Assembly (NCBI GenBank): GCA_000004985.1
Contig: GG738868.1
Origin: Naegleria gruberi
Lineage: Eukaryota
Direction: 5' to 3' (one strand)
DNA length: 64,000 nucleotides
A program made the position numbers and the translations under genes. Positions 7,998 to 63,392 of this stretch are shown here, in pieces. The notes under the pieces are model-generated. The model saw only the letters and a program-made list of their open reading frames with translations. It was not told the DNA's origin and searched no databases. Numbering within the stretch: position 1 is the stretch's first letter; every line of letters begins with the position of its first letter.

Positions 7998-8459
7998 TTA
8001 AAATTTAATTTTCATAAGAGGGAATTGTTCTAAGTAGGCCTCCAACGGTACTTTTTGAATATTAGGTGTTGTTTCAAAGAAATGATTTAATTTTGCGTTC
8101 AACTCATCTTCTGTACAAGGAACGGAAGTTTGAAGAGAATAATGGTCGGTGTGTTCATGAATAAGAACCAAGTCATCTGGAATGGCAACTCCTTCAGGAA
8201 TCAGAATTAGCCCAACCTTTTTTTTGTAGTGGGCAAGAATATGCCCAAGAGTATGACCTCCTGGACGCAAGGAAAGACCATTAGGACATTCAAAAACATC
8301 ACCCTCAGCTGGTTGTACCATTCCGTTTCGTAACACAAAATCAAAAGATTTTTTTCCAGCCTTTGTTTGTCTGCGATATTCTCTTAAAGCAATTTTTTTA
8401 AAAGTGTCTATTCTGTAGAGATTGCATGGAAACTTATTGAAGCGAGTTAGTGTGGACAT
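7998..8459 (-). CDS. Hypothetical 153-aa protein (conserved-looking core ..FVLRNGMVQPAEGDVFECPNGLSLRPGGHTLGHILAHY..); function unknown
   Basis: ATG at 8459, single exon. Globular composition with His-rich motif. No confident family assignment. Confidence 0.45.
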   Translation of the reverse strand: MSTLTRFNKFPCNLYRIDTFKKIALREYRRQTKAGKKSFDFVLRNGMVQPAEGDVFECPNGLSLRPGGHTLGHILAHYKKKVGLILIPEGVAIPDDLVLIHEHTDHYSLQTSVPCTEDELNAKLNHFFETTPNIQKVPLEAYLEQFPLMKIKF

Positions 8460-8776
8460 TTTTTTAATATTAAATTATTAGATTTAAAATTGTCTAACGA
8501 AACAAAATACATGTCTAACAAAAACTACTGATGTTATATTATTTTCTGATTATCATATTATCACTACTTCAAGTTGATTATCGGAAGTAAGAATTAACAT
8601 TGACAGAGAAGATTGAAAAATTTGAAAATCCAATAGGATTGGAGTCTCTTACTACGATTTCTGAAACTGTTGAATCATACCCTTTCTCACTTGATTCCTA
8701 CAAAGAATTGTGTTTTAATCTCATGGTCAATTATTGGTTTAACATATGAGTGGATGATAATAAATATGAGAGATTA

Positions 8777-16240: not shown

Positions 16241-19195
16241 TTAAAGAGAGAGCAGGCAATTAGTAAATTCAACGTCAATAATTTCGTTTTGAAAAGCTTG
16301 AGTAATGGTATTTGTTAAATCTGTTGCCAGAGTTAATCTATCCTTATCAATTACGTCTTCATTACTCGGTTCTTTTACCAATAACTTTCGAATAAATTTG
16401 ATCAATTGTCTAGCAGATATTAAATCCAAATTATCAGCGTATGCTTTCAACATCTGTACAATAATTTCAACAAATAAATTAGCAACTTCAGGATCTGAAT
16501 AAAAATCATCAGAATTTTCCTCGTACCAATCAGTGATAATTTCTTTAACGTAAGTCATGTCTTCTAAATGGATAGAATTAAATAAATACGGGAAGGTGAC
16601 TTCCTCAACAGTGCTGTCAATATCTCCATTATTTTCGCTTTCCTCTTTGTGTTTTTCCTTCTCTTTTTGTTCCTGTTGCTTCTTTTTCCAAGTTAGATCC
16701 TTAATTATATCTCTTTTAATATCCCAAGGCATTTCTTCAATGAACGAAAATGATATTGGTTCGTTTAGACCTCCCTTAGCCAACTTGAGTTGTTTTAGAA
16801 TAAATCAATCATTAAAAAACATACATTTTCCAATTCACAAAATTCATCCAGTCTGAAGGCATGTTTTTCCTTCTTTTTTTGTTGAGCTGATTTCTTTTCT
16901 GTAATAATTGTAGTTTTAGTTGAGGAATGGCTTCGTACTAGCATTGTAGAATCTTCATTGTCAATAATATCCTCATTCTGGCTATTTAAAACTTCTATTT
17001 GTTGCTCTTCTAATTGCTGCGCATCCTTTTTAAGGTATTTGGTCAAGGAGGAATTGTTATTATTGCGAGTAACATTCAATTTTTGAATTTGAATCGCTAT
17101 CCCTCTCAAATCTTCAGCTTCTATCTACGAATATTAACAATTAACAAAGTTGGACTCAACTTACAGATAACTGGTTGTATAAATCTTTCACTTTTCTTGA
17201 AATTAAATCACTGTCATCAGTAAAGTAAGGAACAGTACACGATTTCGAAAAATTATCACAAATACCATGTCCTAAATATTTTTTTGCTTCTGGGGCTTCA
17301 TCTTTGCGCTTCTTGACTTTTAGAACTATTGCTTTACCCTTAACATTTTCATTTTTCAATCTGCTTGTCACTTCTATTGAGAGCTTGTCAATAAATTCAG
17401 ATACTTGAGCCATTTTAGTGAATCTGATTCCGTAATTAACTTCCACGCCAACTGACTTTCTTCCAGTATCATCAAAGAATGGTCTCTTGTCTATTCCTCT
17501 AAGAAAATTGTACAAAGTTTCTCCTTTCTTCTCACCTACTAATTCTTTCAATTCAGTTTTGGAGTAACTCAATAACTGAGAACATTTAGTGATGCTCATC
17601 TGATTAAAAAACTTTTTAGTTTTCCAACCAACTGAGGGTATTTCTTCGATGTTTAAATTTTCTATAAAACTAACAGCCTCTTTGGCATCAAGATAGAATT
17701 GCCCATTTGGTTTTGCCTTTTTAGTTGCAATTCTGGCTAAGAGTTGGTTTGTTGACATTCCAGCAGAAGCTGTACATTTTGTTTCCCTCTCTATTTCATT
17801 TCTAATTTTTGAAACTAACTCATTCAATTCTTCCACAGTATTATTTTTCAACTCATTTGTAATTTCAATGAAGGCTTCATCTATGGAAATAATTTTAACT
17901 CTTTCACAATGACTGTTCAAAATTTCATCAATTTTGGATGCAGCCTCATTATACTTTTCAAATTCGTAAGGAACAACAATGAGATCTGGACACAATTCTC
18001 TGGCCTGTTTCATCCACATTCCTGCTCTCACTCCAAAGTCTCTTGCACAATAGTTTGCTGAAGAAATGTCACCTGTTCCATCAGTTGAATATGATACTGC
18101 AATAGGTTTGTTCTTCAGTGATGGATTATCTCTCATGGCTATTGATGCAAAGAAGCAGTCCATATCAATATGTACAACAAATACCCCTTTCTTATCAGCT
18201 GTTGAACTAGTTGGATTTTTGCTTCTTTGCTTGTTTTTCCAGGTACTAATAAAGTGTAATCTACTACTTTTCATATAATTGCCAATAAAATTGGGATCTG
18301 ATGCAGCACTCTTTGCCATTAAATCTTTTAAAGGTCTAGACTCTTCAACACTCTGATTCTTTTCAGATATCATAAAAGTTGTAGAATTGACTATTGGTGC
18401 TCTTCTTTCTGGAATTATAAATTGTTGTCTATTGAAATTGTTATTCGTCTCTATTGGAAGAGGTGTAATATTATTCTGAATTGTTGGTGGGGTACTGGAT
18501 GTATTTGATTTCTTCTTAATTCTCAATGTTGATTTTCCAACTGGAGTTGACGAGGGAGAAAGAGCAAAATTATAATCTTCTTTGTTTTTAGTTTGATTTG
18601 ATGTTGATGAAGAGCAAGCTTTTGAATTTTCTATTGAATTAGAGGAGTTTGATTCAGATGAAATAAATTTTTGTTGATTATTCCTATTCACAGTTGTGAA
18701 TGAACGCATATCCTTGTGTTGAACAGTATTTCTCGAATTATCCACAATTAAATAATCTTTTACAGAGAGTAAAACTCCTGACTTTACACAATCCATAATC
18801 CACCTCGGATGAACAATATGGGGAGGGTTCCTTCGTTTGACCAATTCCTTTAATTTTGAATGTGCTAATTGACATGCCAACAGATGAGTGACAGTACTAT
18901 CAAAATATTGTCGATATGATCCTCCGTGTTTCGTAATTAATCCAATTAAAATTACAGAAGATGGTTCCGTATGACCATCTATATTCATAATTAACCCTTC
19001 AAAAAACATTGGAATATCGCTCTTCTCTGTTGATGAGCCCTTTTTGTATTGATTTGATGATGCAGCAGATCCTGGTCCTTGCCATTGTTCATCTAACTTT
19101 TTCTTTTTCACTTTGAAATAATGATCCCTATCTGTCCAACCCTCATCTTCTATTATGGAATGTTTCTTATTGTTAGTATTTGATGATTCCGACAT
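16241..19195 (-). CDS. REV1: DNA repair protein REV1 (BRCT + Y-family polymerase + C-terminal four-helix-bundle domain), 3 exons: 19195..17165, 17124..16825, 16783..16241
   Basis: ATG at 19195. N-terminal BRCT (..IMNIDGHTEPSSVILIGLITKHGGSYRQYFDSTVTHLLACQLAHSKLKEL..). Y-family/IMS catalytic core: VFVVHIDMDCFFASIAMRDNPSLKNKPIAVSYS...ISSANYCARDFGVRAGMWMKQARELCPDLIVVPYEFEKYNEAASKIDEILNSHCERVKIISIDEAFIEIT. Track ORF ends at 17156, but a GTAAGT donor sits right after ..YNQLS (intron 17164..17125, 40 nt). A second 41-nt intron (16824..16784; GTATGT..CTCAAG) joins ORFs 16795..17109 and 16241..16783. The final exon resembles the REV1 C-terminal domain (VKEIITDWYEEN..PEVANLFVEIIVQMLKAYADNLDLISARQLIKFIRKLL versus human VKTLLREWITTISDPMEEDILQVVKYCTDLIEEKDLEKLDLVIKYMKRLM). 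Confidence 0.75.
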
Positions 19196-21275: not shown

Positions 21276-23661
21276 ATGTCAACACCAGATTTATGTTCCA
21301 TTCAGTTCAACAAGGAGCTGACGGAAAATCTACTCACAATAAATTCGTCTCCAATAAATCTAGAAAATGCTTCCTTGAAAGAATGTTTTGAACCCTATAG
21401 AAATTGTTTGAAATTAGCCCAGTTGTGGATTTTACAAGATTTAAAGAAAAGACAAGAAAACGAAAGGAGAAGAATTAAAGAAATGAAAGATGCCGATCCG
21501 AAAAAGTGGGCAGAATGGACAAAAGATTTGCCTTTCGAAGTCAAATGTGAAATTATTTCGTTTGTTCCAACGTTTAGTCCAACGAGATTTGTTAATGATT
21601 CTCAGTTTTTGAGTGTAGATCAATTAATGCCAGATCCATTTTTTGTTTCGTATTTGAAACATAGATTGGTTTCGAGAAATGTGAAAAGATATTTAGAAAG
21701 TTTGATATTTGAGAAAATGTCTAGAGATTGTGTCGATTTATCCAAATTCTATTGGAATGTTTCTCCTCTCACTAAATTCAATAGAACAAATCTGATTCTT
21801 GCTTTATTGCGAGGAAATGAACAACATATGACAAATGATGGTTCAGTAGAATTAAATTTTCAACCTACAAACTTGGTTAGTTTTGAAGATGATCTTCCAA
21901 TGATGGAAAAGTTATTTCCAAGAGATGAAAAATTGGAGTTTTATGAGGAATCAAATTTAGATTATAGCATGTTGGAGGTATGCAAGTCAATTTCTGGAGA
22001 GGAAGAATTAAAATTAGAGAAGCAAATTGTGGATGAAATGCCAAATGAAAGGAAACAAATGAAAGTTAAATTTCAATCCGAAACTGAAAAAGATTTGAGT
22101 GATTTAAAAATATTAGCAATGCAAAATACCGAGAGAAATGATATTCACACAGCCTTTTCATATGAGGCACCTTTTTTCCGTTACGAGCAACAAGAGAAAC
22201 TGGAGGAGTTCAATAAGGAGGATTCAAATTTCACAAATTATTTTGTGAAAAGAGTACGCTTATCCTTCTTTAGTACACTTGGAATGTTTAACTCTGTCCC
22301 TAGTCTCTTGTTGATTGTTTCCAGATTGAAAAATCTTCAAGAATTAGAAATTGAGGTGGTTTCTTTCATTTCTCTAATTGAATTTATGCGTGGATTGAGT
22401 AAGGATACTTTCTCAGATTTGAAATCGCTCAGAATTTATTGTCATGCTTATCTTTCTGCTTTTGTTAGACATTTTATCAAAACAGAAATAGCAAAGAATG
22501 TGTACTTGACTGCTTTGATAGATAGTCCGAATGATCTGCAACATTTGACTTCCTATTACAATGTATATTTGAACAATGAATTAGTGGATGGACAAATTTA
22601 CGACTCTAATCGTCCCAATTTATTTATTGAACCGTTTACAATGAGTGATGTTAAATCTCTTGATGATCCAATTACAACCAGATTACTGGCCTATATTACA
22701 GCTCCAGAATTTAATCTCTATAACATTCATGAGAAAAAGGAAATGATAGAAATTATAACAAAGCGTTATCCACTCACTAGTAAGTATTTCATCTTTATTC
22801 TTCAATGTTTCATTCCATTAATTAGTGTGTTCTCAATCAATGTTTAGCAATATAACCAATCATTTCCCAATTTCTGTGGCCCTCCTTCAATACATGATCT
22901 ATCTGAGTAATATCCATCATGATGGTATAATTTTCTCATCTCTTCCAAATAATTTCACTGAGGAATGCATCCTATTCATGATACACAGTGGATGGAATAT
23001 GACCAATAATTTTATGCAAGTCGTTGGAAACCTTGGACCTTCTACAACTGAAATTGTTCTCAAACATTTGTCTAAATTAATTGAGGAGAAAGTATTCAAG
23101 ATTGACATTGTTAAAGCTAGAACATTTCTCCTTACTGTAATGAGCGAAAAGTACTGCAGATTATTGAGATTTATTTGTGAACATTGTAATGAGGAAGAAA
23201 AAATCTATCTCTTTAGTTCTGTCAGATATTTCGAAACCTCAATCTCGTATTATGAAACCACTATTTTCAATCATATGATTAACAATTGTAGAGATCTAGT
23301 TATACCATACATTCTGCCACACATTCCTCCATCTTGCTTATTGGAAAAATCAACAAGAAAGACAAAAACCAGTGACAGATACTTCACATCTCTTCATTAT
23401 GCTATTTGCAACTCAAATATTAGTACTCAATCGATTGCGAAAATTGTAGAATGTCAGCCATCCTTAATTGAAATGCCAGATAATGAGGGAATCACTCCTC
23501 TTCATTTGATTGCTATCAATATTAACAGATGGTCTCTTGTTGAAGTTTGGAAGACATATGGAGTTGATTTGAATGTAAAAAGCAGTAGAGGACTAACTCC
23601 ACTAGATTATGCCAAAATGGAATATCCAAAATATGCATTAATATTTGAGGAACAATTATAA
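21276..23661 (+). CDS. Ankyrin-repeat protein, 2 exons: 21276..22779, 46-nt intron 22780..22825 (GTAAGT...TTAATTAG), exon 2 22826..23661
   Basis: ATG at 21276. The two track ORFs overlap in different frames. A GTAAGT donor after ..RYPLT and an AG acceptor restore the frame (..PLT|M|CSQSMF..). C-terminal ankyrin repeats (..SLHYAICNSN..GITPLHLIAIN..GLTPLDYAK..). Confidence 0.6.
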
Positions 23662-41857: not shown

Positions 41858-43879
41858 TTATTCCACTTTTTCTTTTTGTTTGAAAAGAGAAATTATTGAG
41901 GTTCCAACCAAGACAGTCCAAGTTGGAATCATGACAACACAGAAACTGATATAGAATAGGTTTTGAGGTAGGTCAGTAATTGTGAAAAACCATTCGAGTT
42001 GACTTGAAATAGCTTCTCCAAAATAGTGTTGTCTTACAAGAATATTTACAATAATCAAATTGAATGGACAAGCTGCAAGTAAGGATACAAGCTGAACAAG
42101 CTTGGCAATAATGTTAGTTGGAAAAACTGTTGTCAAAATGCACAAAATTGATAAATAAGAGGAAAGGAAAATACACAAGGCACTCGAATAAATCATGATT
42201 GCTCCTACCATAATTCCAGAAAAAGCAATAGAAAGAGATTTGGCATATCTCCAATGGATTGGATTTGGTTTAGCTTTGAATAAATACTCGTAAATTCTAT
42301 TAACAACTGGGTAGAACAAAGTGAGAGAAGAAAGTACCAAAATTACAACTATTGAGATCCAATAAGTGGCAAATTGTTGCGAATCAAGAGCCAAATGACG
42401 AAGAGTATCCTTCAATATAATTGGTGTCAAATAAATTAAAACTCCATTAGCAAAATTAGAAATAACAAAAATGACTGCATGAGCAAGTTCTTTTTCGGAT
42501 GCAGTACTGGCATAGTAGTTTCCAATAAATTGAATAGCCAAACAACCAAGGAACATTAATAAGTTTGGTAAATAATGTTCAAATCCATAATAATGTTGTG
42601 AATCAGTAACATAGTACAAAAAGAACGATTGATGCAACTCTTCAATAAGGTTGTTCAAGCTTCTTATACTAATTTCCATAATTCTTCCCATCATGTAATA
42701 GGTATGCATGACACCAATTTTTGTAGTGTGCTGAGTAACAGAGTTAGTCAAAGTAATTGCATGAGTTAATTGTTGTCTGAACCAGGCATGTGGGCCAGTT
42801 GGGATGGAAATCAATTGATTATACCAATGGTTCAATACAATAACACTTCGTTCCATAAAAGAGTTTGGCAAATCAATTCCAAATGATCTAATCATTTCCA
42901 AAAATGCATGATGTAAATAGATAAATGCTGGTACATGATCCTTATAGTTTGGATACTGTTGCATGGTGGCATCAACATTTGGTGTTGCAGTCAGGTCAGC
43001 TTTAAAGAAAGTAGGAAGACCACCACGACCCATATTATAATGACTTTCACTCAATAAACCAGTCACAACATTGACCATGTCAAGATTTGGAAGTTCTCCA
43101 TTGACACCTTCAGTAAGAACAGCAACTTGTTGAAAATCAAATGATTCCAAATCCAAAGTAATGGCCTCTCTCATTCTACCAGTAGGAATAGCAGCAGATT
43201 TGATAAAAGCTTCTTCACCAGCCCAATTATGTTCATATCCATCACTAATAACCAAAATAATATCATGATTAAGCCATTTAACTCTTGAAATATATTTCAA
43301 CAATGCCAACGAGAAGGCCAAACTTTCAGATTTAAAATATGGAACTGTCAATATAATAGATTCCTTTCCATTACCTCTTCCTGGTCTAATAGCAATATAT
43401 AAATTTTCACCTCTCACATTTTCAATCCTATTAATATATCTTCTTTCAACACTATACTCATGTCTCTTCATTTCACTATAAAAAGGAATACTCTCAGAAT
43501 TTAAATAACTTTCAACAGCACTATAAGTTTGATTTCTAAAATCCAACTTGGCTGATCTACTATCCAATGTTTTTAATTGATTCAAAATTGAAACTCCATA
43601 ATCAGCATCTTGTTGATTAAATTCTGGTGTATGAAAAAACACAGAGAGAGCATTCTCCGAATAATAAATGTTTTTCGTAACGAAGGGCCAACATAAAAAC
43701 CATCCAATGGCTCCGATAAATAATAAATAGGAAACAATATTAAAGTATTTAAATAGGTGAAGAATAACTCTTCTCATCATGGGAACTTGTGTTGTATTGT
43801 TATTATTTTCATCAACATTAGGATCTCTTTCATGATCACCACGAGCGATCACTTCCTTCTCTTCGTCTATTTGTTCCAT
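41858..43879 (-). CDS. GPAA1: GPI transamidase component GAA1 (GPAA1)
   Basis: ATG at 43879. Conserved blocks YYSENALSVFF.. (human YMSENAMGS), GENLYIAIRPGRGNGKESIILTVPY ([25 protein letters not shown]), NGELPNLDMVNVV (NGQLPNLDLLNLF), LIEELHQSFFLYYV (LLERLHQSFFLYLL). N-terminal TM helix plus multi-TM C-terminal region. Confidence 0.88.
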   Translation of the reverse strand: MEQIDEEKEVIARGDHERDPNVDENNNNTTQVPMMRRVILHLFKYFNIVSYLLFIGAIGWFLCWPFVTKNIYYSENALSVFFHTPEFNQQDADYGVSILNQLKTLDSRSAKLDFRNQTYSAVESYLNSESIPFYSEMKRHEYSVERRYINRIENVRGENLYIAIRPGRGNGKESIILTVPYFKSESLAFSLALLKYISRVKWLNHDIILVISDGYEHNWAGEEAFIKSAAIPTGRMREAITLDLESFDFQQVAVLTEGVNGELPNLDMVNVVTGLLSESHYNMGRGGLPTFFKADLTATPNVDATMQQYPNYKDHVPAFIYLHHAFLEMIRSFGIDLPNSFMERSVIVLNHWYNQLISIPTGPHAWFRQQLTHAITLTNSVTQHTTKIGVMHTYYMMGRIMEISIRSLNNLIEELHQSFFLYYVTDSQHYYGFEHYLPNLLMFLGCLAIQFIGNYYASTASEKELAHAVIFVISNFANGVLIYLTPIILKDTLRHLALDSQQFATYWISIVVILVLSSLTLFYPVVNRIYEYLFKAKPNPIHWRYAKSLSIAFSGIMVGAIMIYSSALCIFLSSYLSILCILTTVFPTNIIAKLVQLVSLLAACPFNLIIVNILVRQHYFGEAISSQLEWFFTITDLPQNLFYISFCVVMIPTWTVLVGTSIISLFKQKEKVE

Positions 43880-44014
43880 TTTTTATTTATATTTTAATTC
43901 AAGTATTTATTATTAATTAAATTTACTATTTAAACTTTATATTTTGAATTAATAAAACAAGAGAAAGCCTTTGAATCAAGATGTTGATATGCTTTCAATT
44001 CCCATCTTTAAAAA

Positions 44015-44960
44015 ATGGAATTGGCAACACCACTTGCTAACAATACCCTCTCTGATGATCATCATGGTAAGTAGATGATGATCGGAACAAATATTGAACA
44101 ATTAGGAATTAATTAGATTATTCATTTCCTGATGATATTTGCTTTGAAATTTTGTCATTTCTTGATCCGTGGTCGATTTTGAAAAGTTGTTTATTAATTT
44201 CCAAGCAATGGATGACAATTATTGAACAACGTGTTCAGCTTTCGTTAGAGTTTACGGAAAGGATGAATTTAAGATCGAGCCAATTGTTTTTAAAGAGCCA
44301 ATTTTTAGGAAATATTATCAATCTACAATTATCAGATAAGCAGATGAGTCTTGAGGTTTGGGAAAATGTTGTGAATGCTCTATTGTCTATGGGGAAATTA
44401 AGAATATTGATGGTTGAGAATAATGTGGATATTGAGGGAGCTAAAGTTATTGGAAATATCAAAAGTTTAACCAAGCTCAATATTAATACCATGTCAGTTG
44501 ATTTTTATAGTAGATCTTTTTGCAGACAGGTAAAGAAGGAGCTGAATATTTAAGCGAATTAATCAATTTGAAAGATCTTGATATTTATGATGATAGTATT
44601 GGTGATGAAGGAGCTTTGTCAATTTTTAACTTGAGCAACCTTACCCACCTTGATATTTCAGCAAACGAAATTAGTGATGAAGCTGCGAAATCAATTGGTA
44701 ATTTAAAAAATTTGACTGTTCTTATAATTGGAGCTAATTTAATAAGTGATGAAGGTGTTAAACCAATCACTAATATGAGCCAACTGACTCATCTTGATAT
44801 CAGCAGCAACCTAATCAAATCCACTGGAGCAAAATCTATTAGTGAAATGAAGAATTTAACACATCTAGATGTTTTTGAAAATAATATTGGTGAAGAGGTA
44901 CTGAGTGGAATGAAAAATTTGAAAGAATTCAGAGAAAATTATTGGGACTTTATGAATTAA
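44015..44960 (+). CDS. F-box/LRR-repeat protein; exon 1 44015..44066, 50-nt intron 44067..44116 (GTAAGT...AATTAG); frame switch near 44497-44525 (29-nt GT..AG micro-intron or T5 homopolymer indel)
   Basis: ATG at 44015 (MELATPLANNTLSDDHH|D|YSFPDDICFEILSFLDPWSILKSCLLISKQW = F-box). RNI-like 24-aa LRRs (..LTHLDISANEISDEAAKSIGNLKN / LTVLIIGANLISDEGVKPITNMSQ / LTHLDISSNLIKSTGAKSISEMKN). The track ORFs 44152..44553 and 44520..44960 are in different frames. Removing GTTGATTTTTATAGTAGATCTTTTTGCAG gives LTKLNINTMS|TGKEGAEYLSELIN, a perfect 24-aa LRR. Confidence 0.6.
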
Positions 44961-44985
44961 ACAATTATTTGAAGACGTTATATAT

Positions 44986-46527
44986 TTAAGGTAATTTCAT
45001 AAGTCTGACAGTGTGGGCCATATGATTGACAGTTTCAGCACCAATTACTAAGACTACCAGATCGCCAGGTTGGGCAAATGACTTTTCAACCAAATATTTA
45101 CAACAAAGCTCTTCGACACTGTGAGGACCTGTGATGTAATCCGTGTTATGGATTAGTACAGGAGTAATTCCCCAACCTAATGTGAGACGATTGAATGTAA
45201 ATTCTTGATCTGTCAATGCAATGATTGGAACATTAGGTCTGTATTGAGAAATACTGACAGCTGTTTTCCCTGAATTAGTGATACAACAAATTAATTTAAC
45301 ACCAGAGTGCTTATTTGCAATAGTAGAAGCAGCCATGCAGCTAGCATTTTCAATAGAGTCAGTGGCATTACTGTTGAAATCATTCTCATGAGAGTCCAAT
45401 CTACCAAACTTGTGAGAATTGATGTCAGCTGTTCTCACAATTAAGTGCATAGTTTTGACAGAAAGAACTGGATATTTTCCCATAGCTGATTCATTACTCA
45501 ACATGACTACATCTGTTCCATCAAAACATGCATTGGAAACATCTGTAACTTCAGCTCTGGTTGGAATTTTACTTTCAACCATAGATTGCAGCATTTGGGT
45601 GGCTGTAATATCAATTTTACCTGCTTTGGAGGATTTTTCAATTAATTCCTTTTGGAAAATTGGTAATTCATGGAAATTAGTCTCAATCATCAAATCACCT
45701 CTATGTGAAATAATTATCAGAAAAAAAATCATTCTACAAACTTACCTTGCAACCATCAATCCATCAGCTTCCTTAAGAATGGCATCAATATTTCTAATAG
45801 CTTCAATTCTCTCAATTTTTGCAATAATTGGAATAGTTTTACCAGCAAATTTCATCATTAGATTCTTGGCATCAATAATATCTTGAGCAAATCTGACAAA
45901 ACTCAAACAAACATAATTAATTTCACCACATTTCATACCAAATTCCAAATCAGCAATATCTTTTTCTGTCAATGCAGGGGCTGAAATAGTTGCCCCTTCA
46001 TCAACCATATTAATTCCCTTTCTTTGAGATAACATTCCTCCTGTTACAACTTTACAAACCATTTCAGTTTCTTCTTGATTTTTAGAAACAACGTGCACTT
46101 CCAAATAACCATCATCAATCATTAATTTAGAGCCAGGTCTACAATCCCTAACCAAATTTGGATAAGAAGTAGAAACTTTTCTAGGTCTAGTTTCATTATC
46201 TTCACCACTCGCAATAACACTCTTATCTGTAGTGATCACAATTTCCTCTCCCTCAACAATCATGAAAGATTTACCCAATTTACCAATTCTAATCTTTGGA
46301 CCTTGAAGATCTTGAACAATTGCAAATGGAATTCCACCCAATTCCTTCTGTGCCTCTCTAATCTTTTGAATCGTCTCCAAATGAACGTTGTGTTCTCCAT
46401 GACTAAAGTTTAATCTAGCTGCGTTCATTCCTTCCATCATCATTTGCATTATTATAGATTTATCGGAAGAGCTTGGGCCGATCGTGCACAATATTTTGGT
46501 TCTTCTATCAGATGCTGTTCCGTTCAT
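44986..46527 (-). CDS. PYK: Pyruvate kinase, 2 exons: 46527..45746 and 45700..44986 (45-nt intron GTAAGT...TTTCACATAG)
   Basis: ATG at 46527. ..RRTKILCTIGPSS..MQMMMEGMNAARLNFSHGEH..LQGPKIRIG..MVDEGATISAPALTEKDIADLEFGMKCGEINYVCLSFVR..IIAKIERIEAIRNIDAILKEADGLMVA|R|GDLMIETNFHELPIFQKELIEKSSKAGKIDITATQMLQSMVESKIPTRAEVTDVSNA.. The intron splits the invariant MVARGDLGIE motif (phase 2). Confidence 0.92.
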
Positions 46528-46781
46528 GTTGTTGTGTTACTGTTTTGGTGAGTGATCAAAAAATTGATTAGATCAAGCTTGATGGAACAGATTAATGTGG
46601 AGATATTTTTTTGCTTGCTTGTAATTTGACAAGTTCATTGTAAGGGAAAGGTTTGAAAGAGCATTCTGGTTGTGATGATGAGATGTTCACAATGAATTGT
46701 CTAATGGCCAAATAATTCATTGGACAAAGATGTAGAATTTACATTTATGGAAATCATTTTTAAATTGAAATTTAGAAAAAA

Positions 46782-48476
46782 ATGAAGGAAGATATTACCA
46801 GAACGCATCTTGTAACGAATTATGGTAATAGAGATTTCTCGCATAAGCATCGATCCAATATTTACAAGCAATATCGTCAGAGTTTTAAAAATTCACCTCA
46901 GACAAATGAACAATCTGGCCATGATGACTCATTCGTCCAGAGTCGATTAGCAACACTGCTACAACAATATTTGTTTAAAACTAATCTCAGTTATCAGGTA
47001 GAAACAATTAGTGGAGAAGAAATGAGACTCTTAGAACAGTACAATGAATTGGCTTCGTATAAGAGACAATTCGATCCAGAAGGTTCACCTCCAGAACTTC
47101 CTGAATTCTTAAATGAACCATTCTATTACATTATTGATTTGAGAAATCTCATGTCAAGACCCAATTTTAAAACTCTCTTTCCAGAGTTTGCAAGAACCGC
47201 CTTAACTGAAGAATTTCGACAGGATTTGGAAATATTTTGGAGGGCGTGTTGTAAAGTATTGAATAGAAACTTTGCATTCATAACCCATTTAGATTTGGGA
47301 GAGAATGATTTGGAAAATCTAAAGCCATTCAGAGAATTATCTCAACTCAAACGTTTGACATGTCTTTCATTAAGAAATAACAAGATTTTATTCATTCAAG
47401 AATTGAGATACTTCTCTGGATTGGTTATTAATGAATTGGATATGTCTGGTAACCCATTCATTAACACTGGTGGTTATGTGAGGGAAGATGTCATTTACAT
47501 GTTGTCATTGTTCCCATTTTTAGAAATAGTGGATCAAAATTTCATTCCAGACGATGTCAAAGAAGAGATTGTTATTCACTCATCTTCCAATGTGTCTTTG
47601 TTACCAGATATTAATATTCAAAGTACATTTGAAAGTCAAGAAGAAAGGGCCTGGATTGAATGGTTTCTCAATAATTACTTTACAACATTCGATACTAACA
47701 GAGCTGAAGTAATGTCATGTTATCAACATAATGCAATCTTCTCGTTTTCATACGATATCAATGCCTATGCTGATTTACCTGAGACATTCGAATCTAAATT
47801 AAGTTTAAGATATCTGAAGCCATTCTCCAGAAATTTACTTTACATTCTCAGAGATTCTACTGCAAGAGAAACTCTTCTGAACGAATCTCTCACTCTTCGA
47901 ATTGGAAAAGAAGCAATTTATGAACTTCTTATTGCTATGCCAAACACAATTCACAATTTAACAACTAATTTAATTGATGTATCGTCATATGACGTTATCA
48001 AAATAGTAGATGAACTCAATCCATATCAATCCCCAATTACTAAACATATTATGGTCAATTATCATGGACAATGCCAACAAATGGACGAAAAAGGTATTAA
48101 ATATCCAAGGTCAATTGATTGTCAATTGATTCTCACACCTAATTTGAATCCACTTACTCAACAAACTCTTCGTTACCTCATCCAAAATCAACAATATCAA
48201 ATTAGACCATATGTTTCACTCAGTTTGACCAAGATCTTCAAAGGACATGAAATAGAAAGACCTTCAACTCCTTATTCTTTCGTTGATACTGGATCAAGAA
48301 CTGAATTAACAGCGCTACACGAAAGCATAATAGTTCAATTCACATCAATTACTGGATTAAGAAGAGAATATGCACTTCCATGTTTGGAATATTCAAATTG
48401 GAATATTAGTAACGCAATTAACACTTTTAACACGGAAAAGATGAATGGAAATATTCCACTCTATTGTTTTCAATAA
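46782..48476 (+). CDS. Nuclear mRNA export factor NXF1/TAP/Mex67-like (LRR + NTF2-like + TAP-C/UBA-like)
   Basis: ATG at 46782. LRR region (..ITHLDLGENDLENLKPFRELSQLKRLTCLSLRNNKI..LDMSGNPF..). NTF2-like domain (..WIEWFLNNYFTTFDTNRAEVMSCYQHNAIFSFS..). C-terminal UBA-like (..LTALHESIIVQFTSITGLRREYALPCLEYSNWNISNAINTF). Confidence 0.72.
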   Translation: MKEDITRTHLVTNYGNRDFSHKHRSNIYKQYRQSFKNSPQTNEQSGHDDSFVQSRLATLLQQYLFKTNLSYQVETISGEEMRLLEQYNELASYKRQFDPEGSPPELPEFLNEPFYYIIDLRNLMSRPNFKTLFPEFARTALTEEFRQDLEIFWRACCKVLNRNFAFITHLDLGENDLENLKPFRELSQLKRLTCLSLRNNKILFIQELRYFSGLVINELDMSGNPFINTGGYVREDVIYMLSLFPFLEIVDQNFIPDDVKEEIVIHSSSNVSLLPDINIQSTFESQEERAWIEWFLNNYFTTFDTNRAEVMSCYQHNAIFSFSYDINAYADLPETFESKLSLRYLKPFSRNLLYILRDSTARETLLNESLTLRIGKEAIYELLIAMPNTIHNLTTNLIDVSSYDVIKIVDELNPYQSPITKHIMVNYHGQCQQMDEKGIKYPRSIDCQLILTPNLNPLTQQTLRYLIQNQQYQIRPYVSLSLTKIFKGHEIERPSTPYSFVDTGSRTELTALHESIIVQFTSITGLRREYALPCLEYSNWNISNAINTFNTEKMNGNIPLYCFQ

Positions 48477-48539
48477 ATTGTGATTTAAATTATTGTAAAT
48501 TATTTGAAAAATCATTATGAAAATTTCAAATAACCAAAT

Positions 48540-49628
48540 ATGAACCTTCAAAATTGGTTAACAAACTTGGATTTGCAGCATTTCATTAATTTTAAATCAA
48601 ATTTTAAAAAAATGAGAAAACAATTAATAAGCAAACTCTCACAAATTGTCTCCCGTGATTTGGGTAATCGTGGCATTGGAAAATTAATAGAAAAATACAC
48701 AAATAACTCTTCCGATTCTACTATCAAACAATCTGAACTGTATTGTGGCAATGAACATTCTATCGGAAAGATTGTTGATGAATTTATAATGCCAAAGGTT
48801 GATTGCCAAAAAGATGTTATTTCTAACAAGTACATTTCGATAATTACTGGATTTTCTGTGCCACCAAATGGATTTTCGGAGAATGATGGACCTTTGGGTG
48901 CAATTTGGATTGGATTGGGAATTGTGAAATATTCCAATTTGAATGTTTTATATTTTGTGGATGAGAATCAATACAATGCAATTTCCAAGTTTGCCAATAT
49001 GGTTTTTGAATCAATGAAAGATAGAATTAAAATTGTTAAAATTACAAAGAGTGATTTGGATAATGTAAAACAATCATCAAGTATTTCTGAATGTATTGAA
49101 AATATTGATTCAATGATTTCTATTGAAAGAGTTGGAAAAACCAAAGATTCTAATTATTATAGTATGAGAGGAATTGATATTTCAAGTTACAATTTGTCAA
49201 TGGATAGATTAATTGATCATGTCAGAGAAATCAAACCAGAAACTCAACTAATTTCTATTGGGGATGGAGGTAATGAAATAGGAATGGGAAATGTAATTGA
49301 TGGAGTTGCACAATTCATCCCAAACGGTGATAAAATAGCATGTGCTGTCAAATGCAATCAGTTATTAATTTGTGGCGTCAGTAATTGGGGTGGTTACTTA
49401 CTCTACCTATTATTTGAACATTGTAATTCATCGCTCACTCTTCAAACAATGCAAGGTATTAATATTGAACTCGATAGAAGCTATCTAGAATATATGAATA
49501 ATGAATGTAAAATGGTAGATGGTGTTAGAAATCAGCCAACTATGAGTGTTGATGGTCTTGAGTATGATCTAGTTCATGCCAACATTCTAAAGGAATTAAA
49601 TGAATGTTTCCAATCATCTAACCAATAA
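48540..49628 (+). CDS. Conserved protein with GDGGNEIGMG motif; possibly DUF4392/D-glutamate-cyclase-related (tentative)
   Basis: ATG at 48540, 362 aa. Motifs ..LISIGDGGNEIGMGNV.. and ..CNQLLICGVSNWGGY... Family assignment is from memory and unverified. Confidence 0.4.
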   Translation: MNLQNWLTNLDLQHFINFKSNFKKMRKQLISKLSQIVSRDLGNRGIGKLIEKYTNNSSDSTIKQSELYCGNEHSIGKIVDEFIMPKVDCQKDVISNKYISIITGFSVPPNGFSENDGPLGAIWIGLGIVKYSNLNVLYFVDENQYNAISKFANMVFESMKDRIKIVKITKSDLDNVKQSSSISECIENIDSMISIERVGKTKDSNYYSMRGIDISSYNLSMDRLIDHVREIKPETQLISIGDGGNEIGMGNVIDGVAQFIPNGDKIACAVKCNQLLICGVSNWGGYLLYLLFEHCNSSLTLQTMQGINIELDRSYLEYMNNECKMVDGVRNQPTMSVDGLEYDLVHANILKELNECFQSSNQ

Positions 49629-58522: not shown

Positions 58523-58640
58523 ATACCTCTCTTCCAAACGTGATTCAAATATTTTGATTTATTTTCATACCTTTCTTCCAAACGTGATTTTGAAAAACGT
58601 GTAAGTTTACAATCCACCAGTATTCGAAACGTGATTCACT
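58523..58640. promoter_or_regulatory. Shared bidirectional promoter region of the inverted paralog pair containing four AAACGTG(A/T) motifs and a 23-nt direct repeat
   Basis: ACGTG cores at 58538-42, 58582-86, 58597-601 and 58629-33. Direct repeat atacctctcttccaaacgtgatt / atacctttcttccaaacgtgatt (58523-45 and 58568-90). attcgaaacgtga also occurs at 57221-57233 upstream of the 55848..57146 gene. Confidence 0.3.
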
Positions 58641-58649
58641 TTAAAAAAA

Positions 58650-59339
58650 ATGCTCAAATTTATTAGTGGAGTTGTTTGTGGAAGTGGAATTACAACACTA
58701 GCCCAGTTCTATGTATCGTCAACCAAATTAGAGAGTCCACCAGGCAGTGAAATTTCACAAGTTGAACCTTTACATGTTGTGATGAATGATTCAACTCCAT
58801 CACCCAGTCATTCATTGGCAATTCCAAGTACGGATTCATCTCTAAATGTTATAGGATTGACTTTGGGAGGAAATTTTGTTTTGATTTGGGTGGTGTTGTG
58901 GGAAGTGGGTAAAATCTTATTTGGTAAGAAGAACGAGAAAAGGGAAATGAGAAAGGAAGAAGCTCAACAAGACGAAACAACAAAACTGAATAATTCTGAA
59001 GGAAAAATTGAAACTGAATCAAGTATCATTAAGAATTTGTATTATTTGGGATATAATTGCAATCATTCCAAATTGGATGAGAAAATTCAACAGATTCTCA
59101 ATACTAATCAACTTGAAAAAAAGGTCAAAATGAGACAAATTGCTTTTGAATCAACGAGAAGTTTGAAAAAGCCAACAAGTGAACATGCGAATGGAGCTGA
59201 TATATTGCTAATTCCTTCTGGAGATTGTCTTTTTATGGATATTCCATATATAGCAATGAAAGGATTTGGAGAATATGAAATTTCAAATAAGGCTATTGAA
59301 TTATTGAAACAATCTGTACAAATAAATTCAAATTATTGA
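58650..59339 (+). CDS. Membrane-anchored protein with conserved C-terminal domain (paralog B, divergently transcribed from paralog A)
   Basis: ATG at 58650. N-terminal hydrophobic segments. C-terminal ..IIKNLYYLGYNCNHSKLDEKIQQILNTNQLEKKVKMRQIAFESTRSLKKPTSEHANGADILLIPSG..PYIAMKGFGEYEISNKAIELLKQS. Confidence 0.5.
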   Translation: MLKFISGVVCGSGITTLAQFYVSSTKLESPPGSEISQVEPLHVVMNDSTPSPSHSLAIPSTDSSLNVIGLTLGGNFVLIWVVLWEVGKILFGKKNEKREMRKEEAQQDETTKLNNSEGKIETESSIIKNLYYLGYNCNHSKLDEKIQQILNTNQLEKKVKMRQIAFESTRSLKKPTSEHANGADILLIPSGDCLFMDIPYIAMKGFGEYEISNKAIELLKQSVQINSNY

Positions 59340-62117: not shown

Positions 62118-63392
62118 CTAATCTACTAATCCTTCAAATTCTCTCTTATCTTTCACTTTAAAGTATGAATAGAGATAGGTTCCAACTACTGTAAATGCAG
62201 AAGACAATAATCCATAAGTAGAAACATGAGTATTGTGAACTGCAAATGATAAAAATGATTCCACAACAGATTTCATTGAAATAGTGACAGAAGTAGTCAA
62301 TGGAGAGGTATAACTAATTAACATGAAATTAGAAATATTGACAACGTATGCTATTAGGGCTGTTGTTGTGAGAATTGCTAAAAACTTTGGTTCAAATAAA
62401 TAATTAACAGAAATTGCCTTTTCAAATTCTCCTGTAAAATAGCAAACAGGGAATAAAAACAAAATGGCACAAACAACGTTATAAATTAGAATAATCCAAT
62501 GATTTCTGTGTGAGGAGGACATTAATTTCTTTAAATAAATTGAATAAAGTGCCATAAAGCAACTGGACATCAATCCAAAAGCAAATCCAATCGACTGCAT
62601 TTTAGAAAGTTGTAATTCTTCAAATCCAGTCATGAAATATCCAATAGCAATCATTAAACATGCTCCAATAATTCTCTTCTGAACTTTTTCTCCCAATAAA
62701 ACTGATGTGAAAATCACCGTGAAACAAATACTAATACTTCTTGCAGTGTGATAGGTGTGAATATCTGCATAATCCAAACACAAATTATTAAAAGTAACCA
62801 TTCCAACATAACACAATGATACAGGAGCTATTTGTACTGCTGTATCAAATTTAAATTCAAAATCTGGTAAGAAACTAAAACAAGTTCTAATTAAATGATT
62901 AGTTTTTTTCAATTTGAATAAATCAATTACCAACCTATTTAAATTATAAGTACAAATAATACACAACAATGAGACAATCAAATGAAACCAAGCCATAGTT
63001 AATGGAAAATGAAATGAATATTCACCCATATCCATCAAGTATTTTGTCAAAAAGACAGATAGAATTGAAGTTACTGAAAAGAAAGAAATGGCCATTCCAA
63101 TTTGTCTTTTTTAAAACATGGGATTAATACCATTTCAACAAATGATGACTTACAAATTTGATGCTTCTTTCCGCAGCAAATGTTGGTGATGAGTGTTTAA
63201 TCTTGCAGAAGTAGGTGATATTGGTTTAAATTCTGTGTTATCCTCCGAATGTGGTGAGTGTTGTCTGTTATTGATTCCTAGTGTTGGTGGCGAGTGGATG
63301 GGTACTTGTTCCTCATCGTCGTCTTGTCTAAGTTTTGTTCTCACCACAAGATTTGGTCCCGAGAGAGAATTGTCATGATGAAGTGAAGACAT
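62118..63392 (-). CDS. TPT-family transporter (SLC35-like nucleotide-sugar/triose-phosphate translocator fold), 2 exons: 63392..63154 and 63105..62118 (48-nt intron GTAAGT...TTTAAAAAAG)
   Basis: ATG at 63392. Exon 1 (MSSLHHDNSLSGPNLVVRTKLRQDDDEE..HLLRKEASN) ends TT|GTAAGT. The acceptor restores ..L|QIGMAISFFSVTSILSV.. Exon 2 encodes ~10 TM helices typical of TPT/SLC35 (..MAWFHLIVSLLCIICTY.., ..IGYFMTGFEEL.., ..LFLFPVCYFTGEFE..). Confidence 0.6.

Follow-up and report, generated by a model that had tools for sequence, protein, structure and literature searches.

Introns of about 25 nt are found in Paramecium. Introns of 15-16 nt have been described in Stentor (PMC9505925) and introns of 18-21 bp in the nucleomorph of Bigelowiella natans (PMC6009652). 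In these ciliate and nucleomorph genomes most introns are tiny and vary little in length, and the spliceosome is adapted to them. Since spliceosomes elsewhere remove introns of 15-21 nt, a length of 29 nt is no physical obstacle to excision. For the genus Naegleria, the literature consulted on intron lengths and splice-site logos gives summary numbers only; in particular, a study of N. fowleri adopted a minimum intron of 30 bp for read mapping, a value set from the predicted genes of that species (PMC8296547).

The segment described here is a 29-nt stretch, bounded by GT and AG, in a gene of Naegleria gruberi NEG-M (assembly GCA_000004985.1, contig GG738868.1). The whole stretch of DNA that was analysed, hereafter the window, comprises 64,000 nt, and all positions refer to it. 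With the tiny introns of ciliates and nucleomorphs the segment has in common a length below 30 nt, an AU-rich composition and GT-AG ends and, as in Stentor, the putative branch adenosine lies about 10 nt from the 5′ end; unlike those introns, the candidate would be a lone outlier in a genome where introns start at about 40 nt. An earlier note on this DNA had placed a 29-nt intron near the lower limit for eukaryotes, which is wrong in view of the Stentor and Bigelowiella lengths: such an intron would be at most a species-level outlier, extreme for Naegleria only. On the sequence evidence, the 29 nt are best explained as an intron-type interruption of an otherwise intact, lineage-specific F-box/LRR gene. 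The segment would work, or would once have worked, like an ordinary U2-type intron, while failing the donor consensus and the length of the introns of this genome. The reading that we tentatively adopt, with slightly less than even confidence, is that of a genuine, highly atypical, spliced U2-type micro-intron.

An unannotated F-box/LRR gene at 44015-44960

The host gene (Table 1) has no model in GenBank or UniProt. Its left neighbour, a 673-aa ORF at 41858-43879 (-), is exactly XP_002677246 / D2VFN6, a GAA1 homologue, and its right neighbour, pyruvate kinase, is D2VFN7. As the UniProt accessions of the two flanking genes are consecutive and no close protein is present in the collections, the F-box/LRR gene in between is unannotated. 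It represents a firm by-product of the analysis and, whether or not the 29 nt are spliced, the gene model can join the N. gruberi annotation with a flag.

Table 1. Features of the F-box/LRR gene and of the 29-nt segment (positions in the window)
Feature	Position	Strand	Remarks
Exon 1	44015-44066	+	ATG at 44015; 17 codons plus 1 nt; model matched back to the window by tblastn
Intron 1	44067-44116	+	canonical, 50 nt, GTAAGT...TTAATTAG
Exon 2	44117-44496	+	F-box, linker and first LRR units; C-terminal end ...LNINTMS
Candidate micro-intron, crippled intron or insertion	44497-44525	+	GT at 44497-44498, AG at 44524-44525
TAG TAG	44508-44513	+	two stops in the frame of exon 3 (three-frame translation)
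T5 run	44517-44521	+	would serve the candidate acceptor as its pyrimidine tract, or else mark where the alternative +1-base error lies
Exon 3	44526-44960	+	144 codons, five to six LRR units, then TAA stop
TAA if the 29 nt are retained	44551-44553	+	162-aa truncated product: 144 aa plus VDFYSRSFCRQVKKELNI

The donor of intron 1 is used by the sole in-frame model and scores 13.5 bits (leave-one-out), and its 3′ end corresponds to the sole acceptor that gives an open frame. When both intron 1 and the 29 nt are removed, the model encodes a 288-aa protein, with an F-box followed by leucine-rich repeats. Specifically, Pfam assigns to this model an F-box-like domain (PF12937) just over its cut-off (24.6 versus 24.3 bits), an F-box (PF00646) with 22.3 bits versus a cut-off of 20.5, and the repeats LRR_14, LRR_8, LRR_4 and LRR_6, every one of them with a score that exceeds its cut-off. 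An N-terminal F-box followed by about seven LRR units of 24 residues is also the architecture of the FBXL-type F-box/LRR substrate receptors of SCF complexes; unlike these receptors generally, the host gene belongs to a lineage-specific heterolobosean family, with an SCF-type role that is predicted. According to the three-frame translation, the 864 nt of coding sequence contain no further stop or frameshift, and the 144 downstream codons stay open despite the AT-richness of the genome (GC content of the window, 33%).

By exact look-up, homology search and inspection of the protein collections, the 288-aa model finds no exact match, the nearest protein being about 40% identical. Likewise, nothing closer than about 40% was returned when the read-through ORF was used in a full HMMER scan, or when two plausible prokaryote-style ORF calls were looked up exactly, and the JGI metagenomes gave no hit either in a protein-guided scan or with a DNA pattern that allowed a gap of 0-30 nt at the junction. 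In the same collections, pyruvate kinase is represented by its GenBank entry and by genomic ORF fragments only. N. gruberi transcript assemblies are apparently absent from the collections, and the missing F-box/LRR product is consequently uninformative about splicing of the 29-mer.

Reading frames and repeat register around the 29-nt segment

The segment has the letters GTTGATTTTTATAGTAGATCTTTTTGCAG and lies exactly at the position assigned to it by the earlier note; the T run reported within it does read TTTTT, with C and G on its sides. From 44113 onwards the upstream frame has no stop before the TAA at 44551-44553; the downstream frame is open from 44514, past the TAG TAG, to the TAA at 44958-44960; the overlap of the two frames amounts to 40 nt (44514-44553). 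Because of the two stops of the TAG TAG, the frame switch must fall at or after 44514. Excision of the 29 nt joins both frames (...ATG TCA / ACA GGT AAA..., that is, M S / T G K), as had been claimed, and generates the unit LTKLNINTMSTGKEGAEYLSELIN (LTKLNINTMS followed by TGKEGAEYLSELIN), whose length of 24 aa is also the period of the next four units.

The register of the repeats can be compared across a whole family, as the full HMMER scan retrieves 36 relatives with a common F-box / SKQW / SQFL-NI linker architecture, 14 of which were taken into the alignment of the junction. The nearest ones, about 40% identical, are P0002, whose coding sequence is intronless on a 1.4-kb Logan contig, and P0003, an N. 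gruberi paralogue; the spliced junction aligns to both without gaps. In the entire set, the spliced junction region (L..L.I..N.IG.EGA..IS) is ungapped in 13 of the 14 members, the sole gap, in P0033, being a deletion, and extra residues at the junction occur in none (0/14). Excision of the segment gives a continuous and conserved reading frame.

How often such ends would be met by chance can be estimated. A 29-nt excision could be placed at about 16 positions without conflict with the stop codons or with the conserved GKEGA motif, and the probability of finding GT...AG at one given placement, from base composition, is about 0.003; the presence of GT...AG at register-restoring boundaries has a chance of roughly 5% overall, which is suggestive, not overwhelming. 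Moreover, the segment is T-rich as local introns are, unlike coding DNA: its T content of 15/29 (52%) is reached by 2% of the coding 29-mers and by 18% of the intron 29-mers of the window. An origin as a duplicate of the adjoining repeat was considered and discarded, as the similarity to the LDIYDDS codons of the next unit is matched by 71% of shuffles; the 29-mer is no copy of its flanks, hence there is no sign of slippage duplication.

No other GT-AG pair at the site yields a sensible protein. In particular, pairs of 17, 20 and 26 nt are too short or alter the repeat period, excision of 44510-44538 would lose the conserved GKEG, and excision of 44493-44554 (62 nt, donor GTCAGT) removes the conserved GKEGAEYLS half-repeat, while excisions of 65-74 nt destroy the LRR register. 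A donor GTAAAG at 44530 has, by reading of the sequence, no in-frame acceptor at a plausible distance, and a U12-type intron was rejected as no [AG]TATCCTT donor is seen by eye.

The two frames could also be connected with no splicing at all. According to a first possibility, one base is missing from the assembly between 44514 and 44528, most simply in a T6 run recorded as T5, and a single added base restores one continuous frame; the outcome is a 298-aa read-through protein with an island of ten residues, VDFYSRSFLQ, inside one LRR, exactly the insertion foreseen by the earlier note. Homopolymers are the usual site of missing-base errors, and the ten extra codons are all common AT-rich codons. 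However, the island has no counterpart in any of the 14 family members and would break the 24-aa period, the T content would place the segment among the rare coding 29-mers mentioned above, and the GT...AG ends in exact register would be pure coincidence. Furthermore, the reference was assembled from Sanger reads at multi-fold coverage, and T5 runs are seldom wrong in assemblies of this kind. A T5 frameshift is possible and yet the least economical option, as it needs the island, the T-richness and the GT...AG coincidences all together, and we deem an assembly error improbable. The second possibility is a -1 ribosomal frameshift on the U-run (UCU UUU UGC), with both frames translated from the unspliced mRNA. 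The 40-nt overlap does contain the U5 run, but a slippery heptamer of the type X XXY YYZ is missing from its zero frame, as judged by reading the codons. Local RNA folding is no stronger than expected by chance (z = -1.09), and the product would keep the same register-breaking 10-aa island, so that this mechanism appears hardly credible.

Splice signals and the fate of the segment

As a local reference, 11 introns of the window were defined from frame joins that homology requires; six of them sit in five spliced models identical to GenBank proteins, namely pyruvate kinase, a proteasome ATPase, a methyltransferase and two predicted proteins. The earlier remark that other introns here are very short holds for this set, with lengths of 40, 40, 41, 43, 45, 46, 48, 50, 50, 71 and 80 nt, and the candidate falls short of the shortest of them by 11 nt. 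All 11 local donors conform to GTA[A/T/G]GT. The candidate donor, TCA/GTTGAT, departs from this consensus at +3, +4 and +5, and so lacks two bases present in every local donor, A at +3 and G at +5; its PWM score is -3.1 bits, versus +4.7 to +13.5 for the 11 local donors (leave-one-out). As many as 54% of the GT dinucleotides of the window score at least as high, that is, the candidate is comparable to the median random GT.

Local acceptors are TAG (7/11) or AAG (4/11), and the CAG of the candidate carries a C at -3 that is found in none of the 11; with 3.9 bits, the candidate acceptor nonetheless scores as real acceptors do and belongs to the best 15% of all AGs, and the T5 tract adjoins the AG. 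A branch adenosine might be supplied at 44507 by a TTTAT motif, 10 nt from the 5′ end of the segment and 18 nt from its 3′ end, where a yTnAy motif about 9-18 nt upstream of the acceptor is expected; such a motif is degenerate in AT-rich sequence and hence non-discriminating. The distance from 5′ site to branch site would be about 10 nt, versus at least about 23 nt in the shortest local introns.

Annotated introns measure 47-187 nt at the loci compared in N. fowleri and N. lovaniensis, and their donors all have a purine at +3. These loci include an orthologous 109-aa gene, at 8082-8598 (-) of L003 in N. fowleri and at 8096-8515 (-) of L005 in N. lovaniensis, with an intron at a common site, of 187 and 90 nt, respectively. 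Its donor is GTAACG in either species, outside the consensus, and indicates that donors of the genus can vary to some extent at +5/+6, though not at +3.

Taken as a U2-type intron, the segment has the GT/AG ends and lies outside both the donor consensus and the length range of the species, as defined by a small sample. With ordinary N. gruberi introns it shares the GT...AG ends, the AT/T-rich interior and a possible yTnAy-like motif before the acceptor; like them it breaks a coding frame whose neighbouring frame contains stops, and a conserved protein is regained on its removal. It differs from them in being shorter by 11 nt, in the GTTGAT donor, in the CAG acceptor and in the branch distance of about 10 nt. 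The micro-intron interpretation of the earlier note is thus sustained in part, by the coding register, the ungapped family alignment and the T content, whereas donor, length and CAG acceptor are atypical. An intron or a former intron would explain the GT...AG ends, the register, the composition and the acceptor. Given the poor splice signals, sequence alone does not separate a tiny working intron from a crippled one.

If the intron is a working one, the spliceosome would cut at the GT past TCA (44496) and join the ACA (44526) past TTTTTGCAG, with the branch adenosine probably in TTTAT. The spliced product would be a 288-aa substrate receptor of SCF type, with an unbroken run of 24-residue LRR units; conversely, were the segment retained, translation would meet the TAA 26 nt further on. 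Splicing would probably be inefficient, since the donor lacks the GTAxGT consensus and the 5′ site is only about 10 nt from the branch site. The sequence, the two frames, the regained register, the intron-like composition and the weak donor are observations; the removal of the 29 nt from the RNA is an inference. How the spliceosome of Naegleria might achieve it, despite a non-GTAxGT donor and some 10 nt to the branch, is a further question, and we hold with clear reserve the proposal that 3′ signals and length would be used for this purpose. If so, a spliceosome tuned to introns of at least 40 nt would define a sub-minimal intron mainly by these two features, and the intron, possibly caught soon after a deletion had shortened it or after it had been gained, might vary among strains.

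The opposite fate of the segment is that of a real frameshift in a disabled allele, where a crippled intron or a 29-nt insertion is no longer removed. In its crippled version, a normal intron of about 40-45 nt would have lost its GTAAGT-type donor by a small deletion, for example between two GT microhomologies. Translation would then stop at the TAA at 44551, with a 162-aa F-box stub as its product, and the LRR frame farther downstream would be a relic of very recent date. A donor resembling a random GT and a length well under the local range speak for such a lesion, and a crippled intron accounts no less well than a live one for the GT...AG ends, the exact register, the T-rich composition and the decent acceptor; a plain insertion, on the contrary, also needs the GT...AG coincidence of about 5% together with an intron-like composition. 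In addition, a polyploid, long-cultured laboratory strain could carry an allele of this kind, and the gene has neither an annotated model nor a product detected in the databases.

Data from a second strain bear on the same question. A metagenome contig (ENA ERZ929261, reads ERR1078381, L002) is 98.7% identical to 44798-47548 and belongs to a second N. gruberi-like strain; it covers the last 163 nt of the F-box/LRR gene (44798-44960) and ends 273 nt short of the 29-mer, and exact ORF look-ups and an HMMER scan of the collections did not find the adjoining contig. In the comparable 163 nt there are no substitutions with respect to NEG-M, and the only indel in this ORF is an in-frame insertion of 9 nt at 44897 (GFQ), which completes the last 24-aa repeat. 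By this comparison, NEG-M carries a derived, in-frame 9-nt deletion that removes a conserved Gly in the last LRR. The loss of conserved residues could hint at relaxed constraint and is in keeping with a disabled allele; on the other hand, the one indel by which the strains differ in the downstream ORF leaves its frame intact. Moreover, homology searches detected no orthologue in N. fowleri or N. lovaniensis, whose GAA1 neighbourhoods contain no F-box/LRR gene, and no such gene is present on a further Naegleria-like ENA contig (L006). A gene with no syntenic or detectable orthologue in those two species may be dispensable.

Against a disabled allele, the lack of a second lesion in the coding sequence implies that the event must be very recent, and a nearest relative only about 40% identical indicates a gene long maintained, for which a single-hit state is unlikely a priori. 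By rough prior reasoning, single-hit pseudogenes that owe their origin to the insertion of a 29-nt GT...AG segment, or to a deletion internal to an intron, would be rare. The locus resembles a young pseudogene or null allele in having a single frame disruption in an otherwise intact gene with neither annotation nor detectable product; it differs in showing no second lesion and in that the disrupting segment is intron-like in ends and composition and sits at a register-restoring position. All considered, a disabled allele deserves to be taken seriously, although on balance we doubt it. The intact remainder of the gene, the canonical intron 1 and the in-frame nature of the sole strain indel would support a live intron.

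The two fates have different implications. If spliced, the 29-nt intron would, as an outlier, show how short an intron and how deviant a donor a heterolobosean spliceosome accepts in practice; it would also explain why annotation missed an intact gene, and the Naegleria intron minima set in aligners and gene finders would need to be lowered. If unspliced, the locus would be an ordinary case, in which a dispensable F-box gene, specific to the lineage, has very recently acquired a null allele.

Neighbouring loci and other observations in the window

Across 41858-49628, gene order differs among Naegleria species: GAA1 and an NXF-like export factor are separated by the F-box/LRR gene and pyruvate kinase in N. 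gruberi, and by an epimerase/3-beta-HSD gene in N. fowleri and N. lovaniensis (L003 and L005). The F-box/LRR and pyruvate kinase genes are convergent, with just 25 nt between their stop codons (44961-44985); as a consequence, unless they overlap, the 3′ UTRs of the two genes can only be extremely short. Compared to NEG-M, the second strain has 11 additional nt in this spacer (at 44971), 3 additional nt in the pyruvate kinase intron (at 45729) and 2 nt fewer upstream of the pyruvate kinase ATG (46533-46534).

Elsewhere in the window, three spliced models have no exact match in the protein collection, and public annotation consequently differs from the simplest models at these loci. They encode a 779-aa protein (21276-23661, +), a 957-aa REV1-like polymerase with two introns of 40-41 nt (16241-19195, -) and a 408-aa membrane protein with a 48-nt intron (62118-63392, -). 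A GTAAGT...TAG segment at 58601-58666 spans an ATG at 58650 and is either a 5′-UTR intron or spurious. Before and around the same ATG, at 58536-58636 (+), the decamer AAACGTGATT occurs in three copies about 45 nt apart, versus 0.17 expected.
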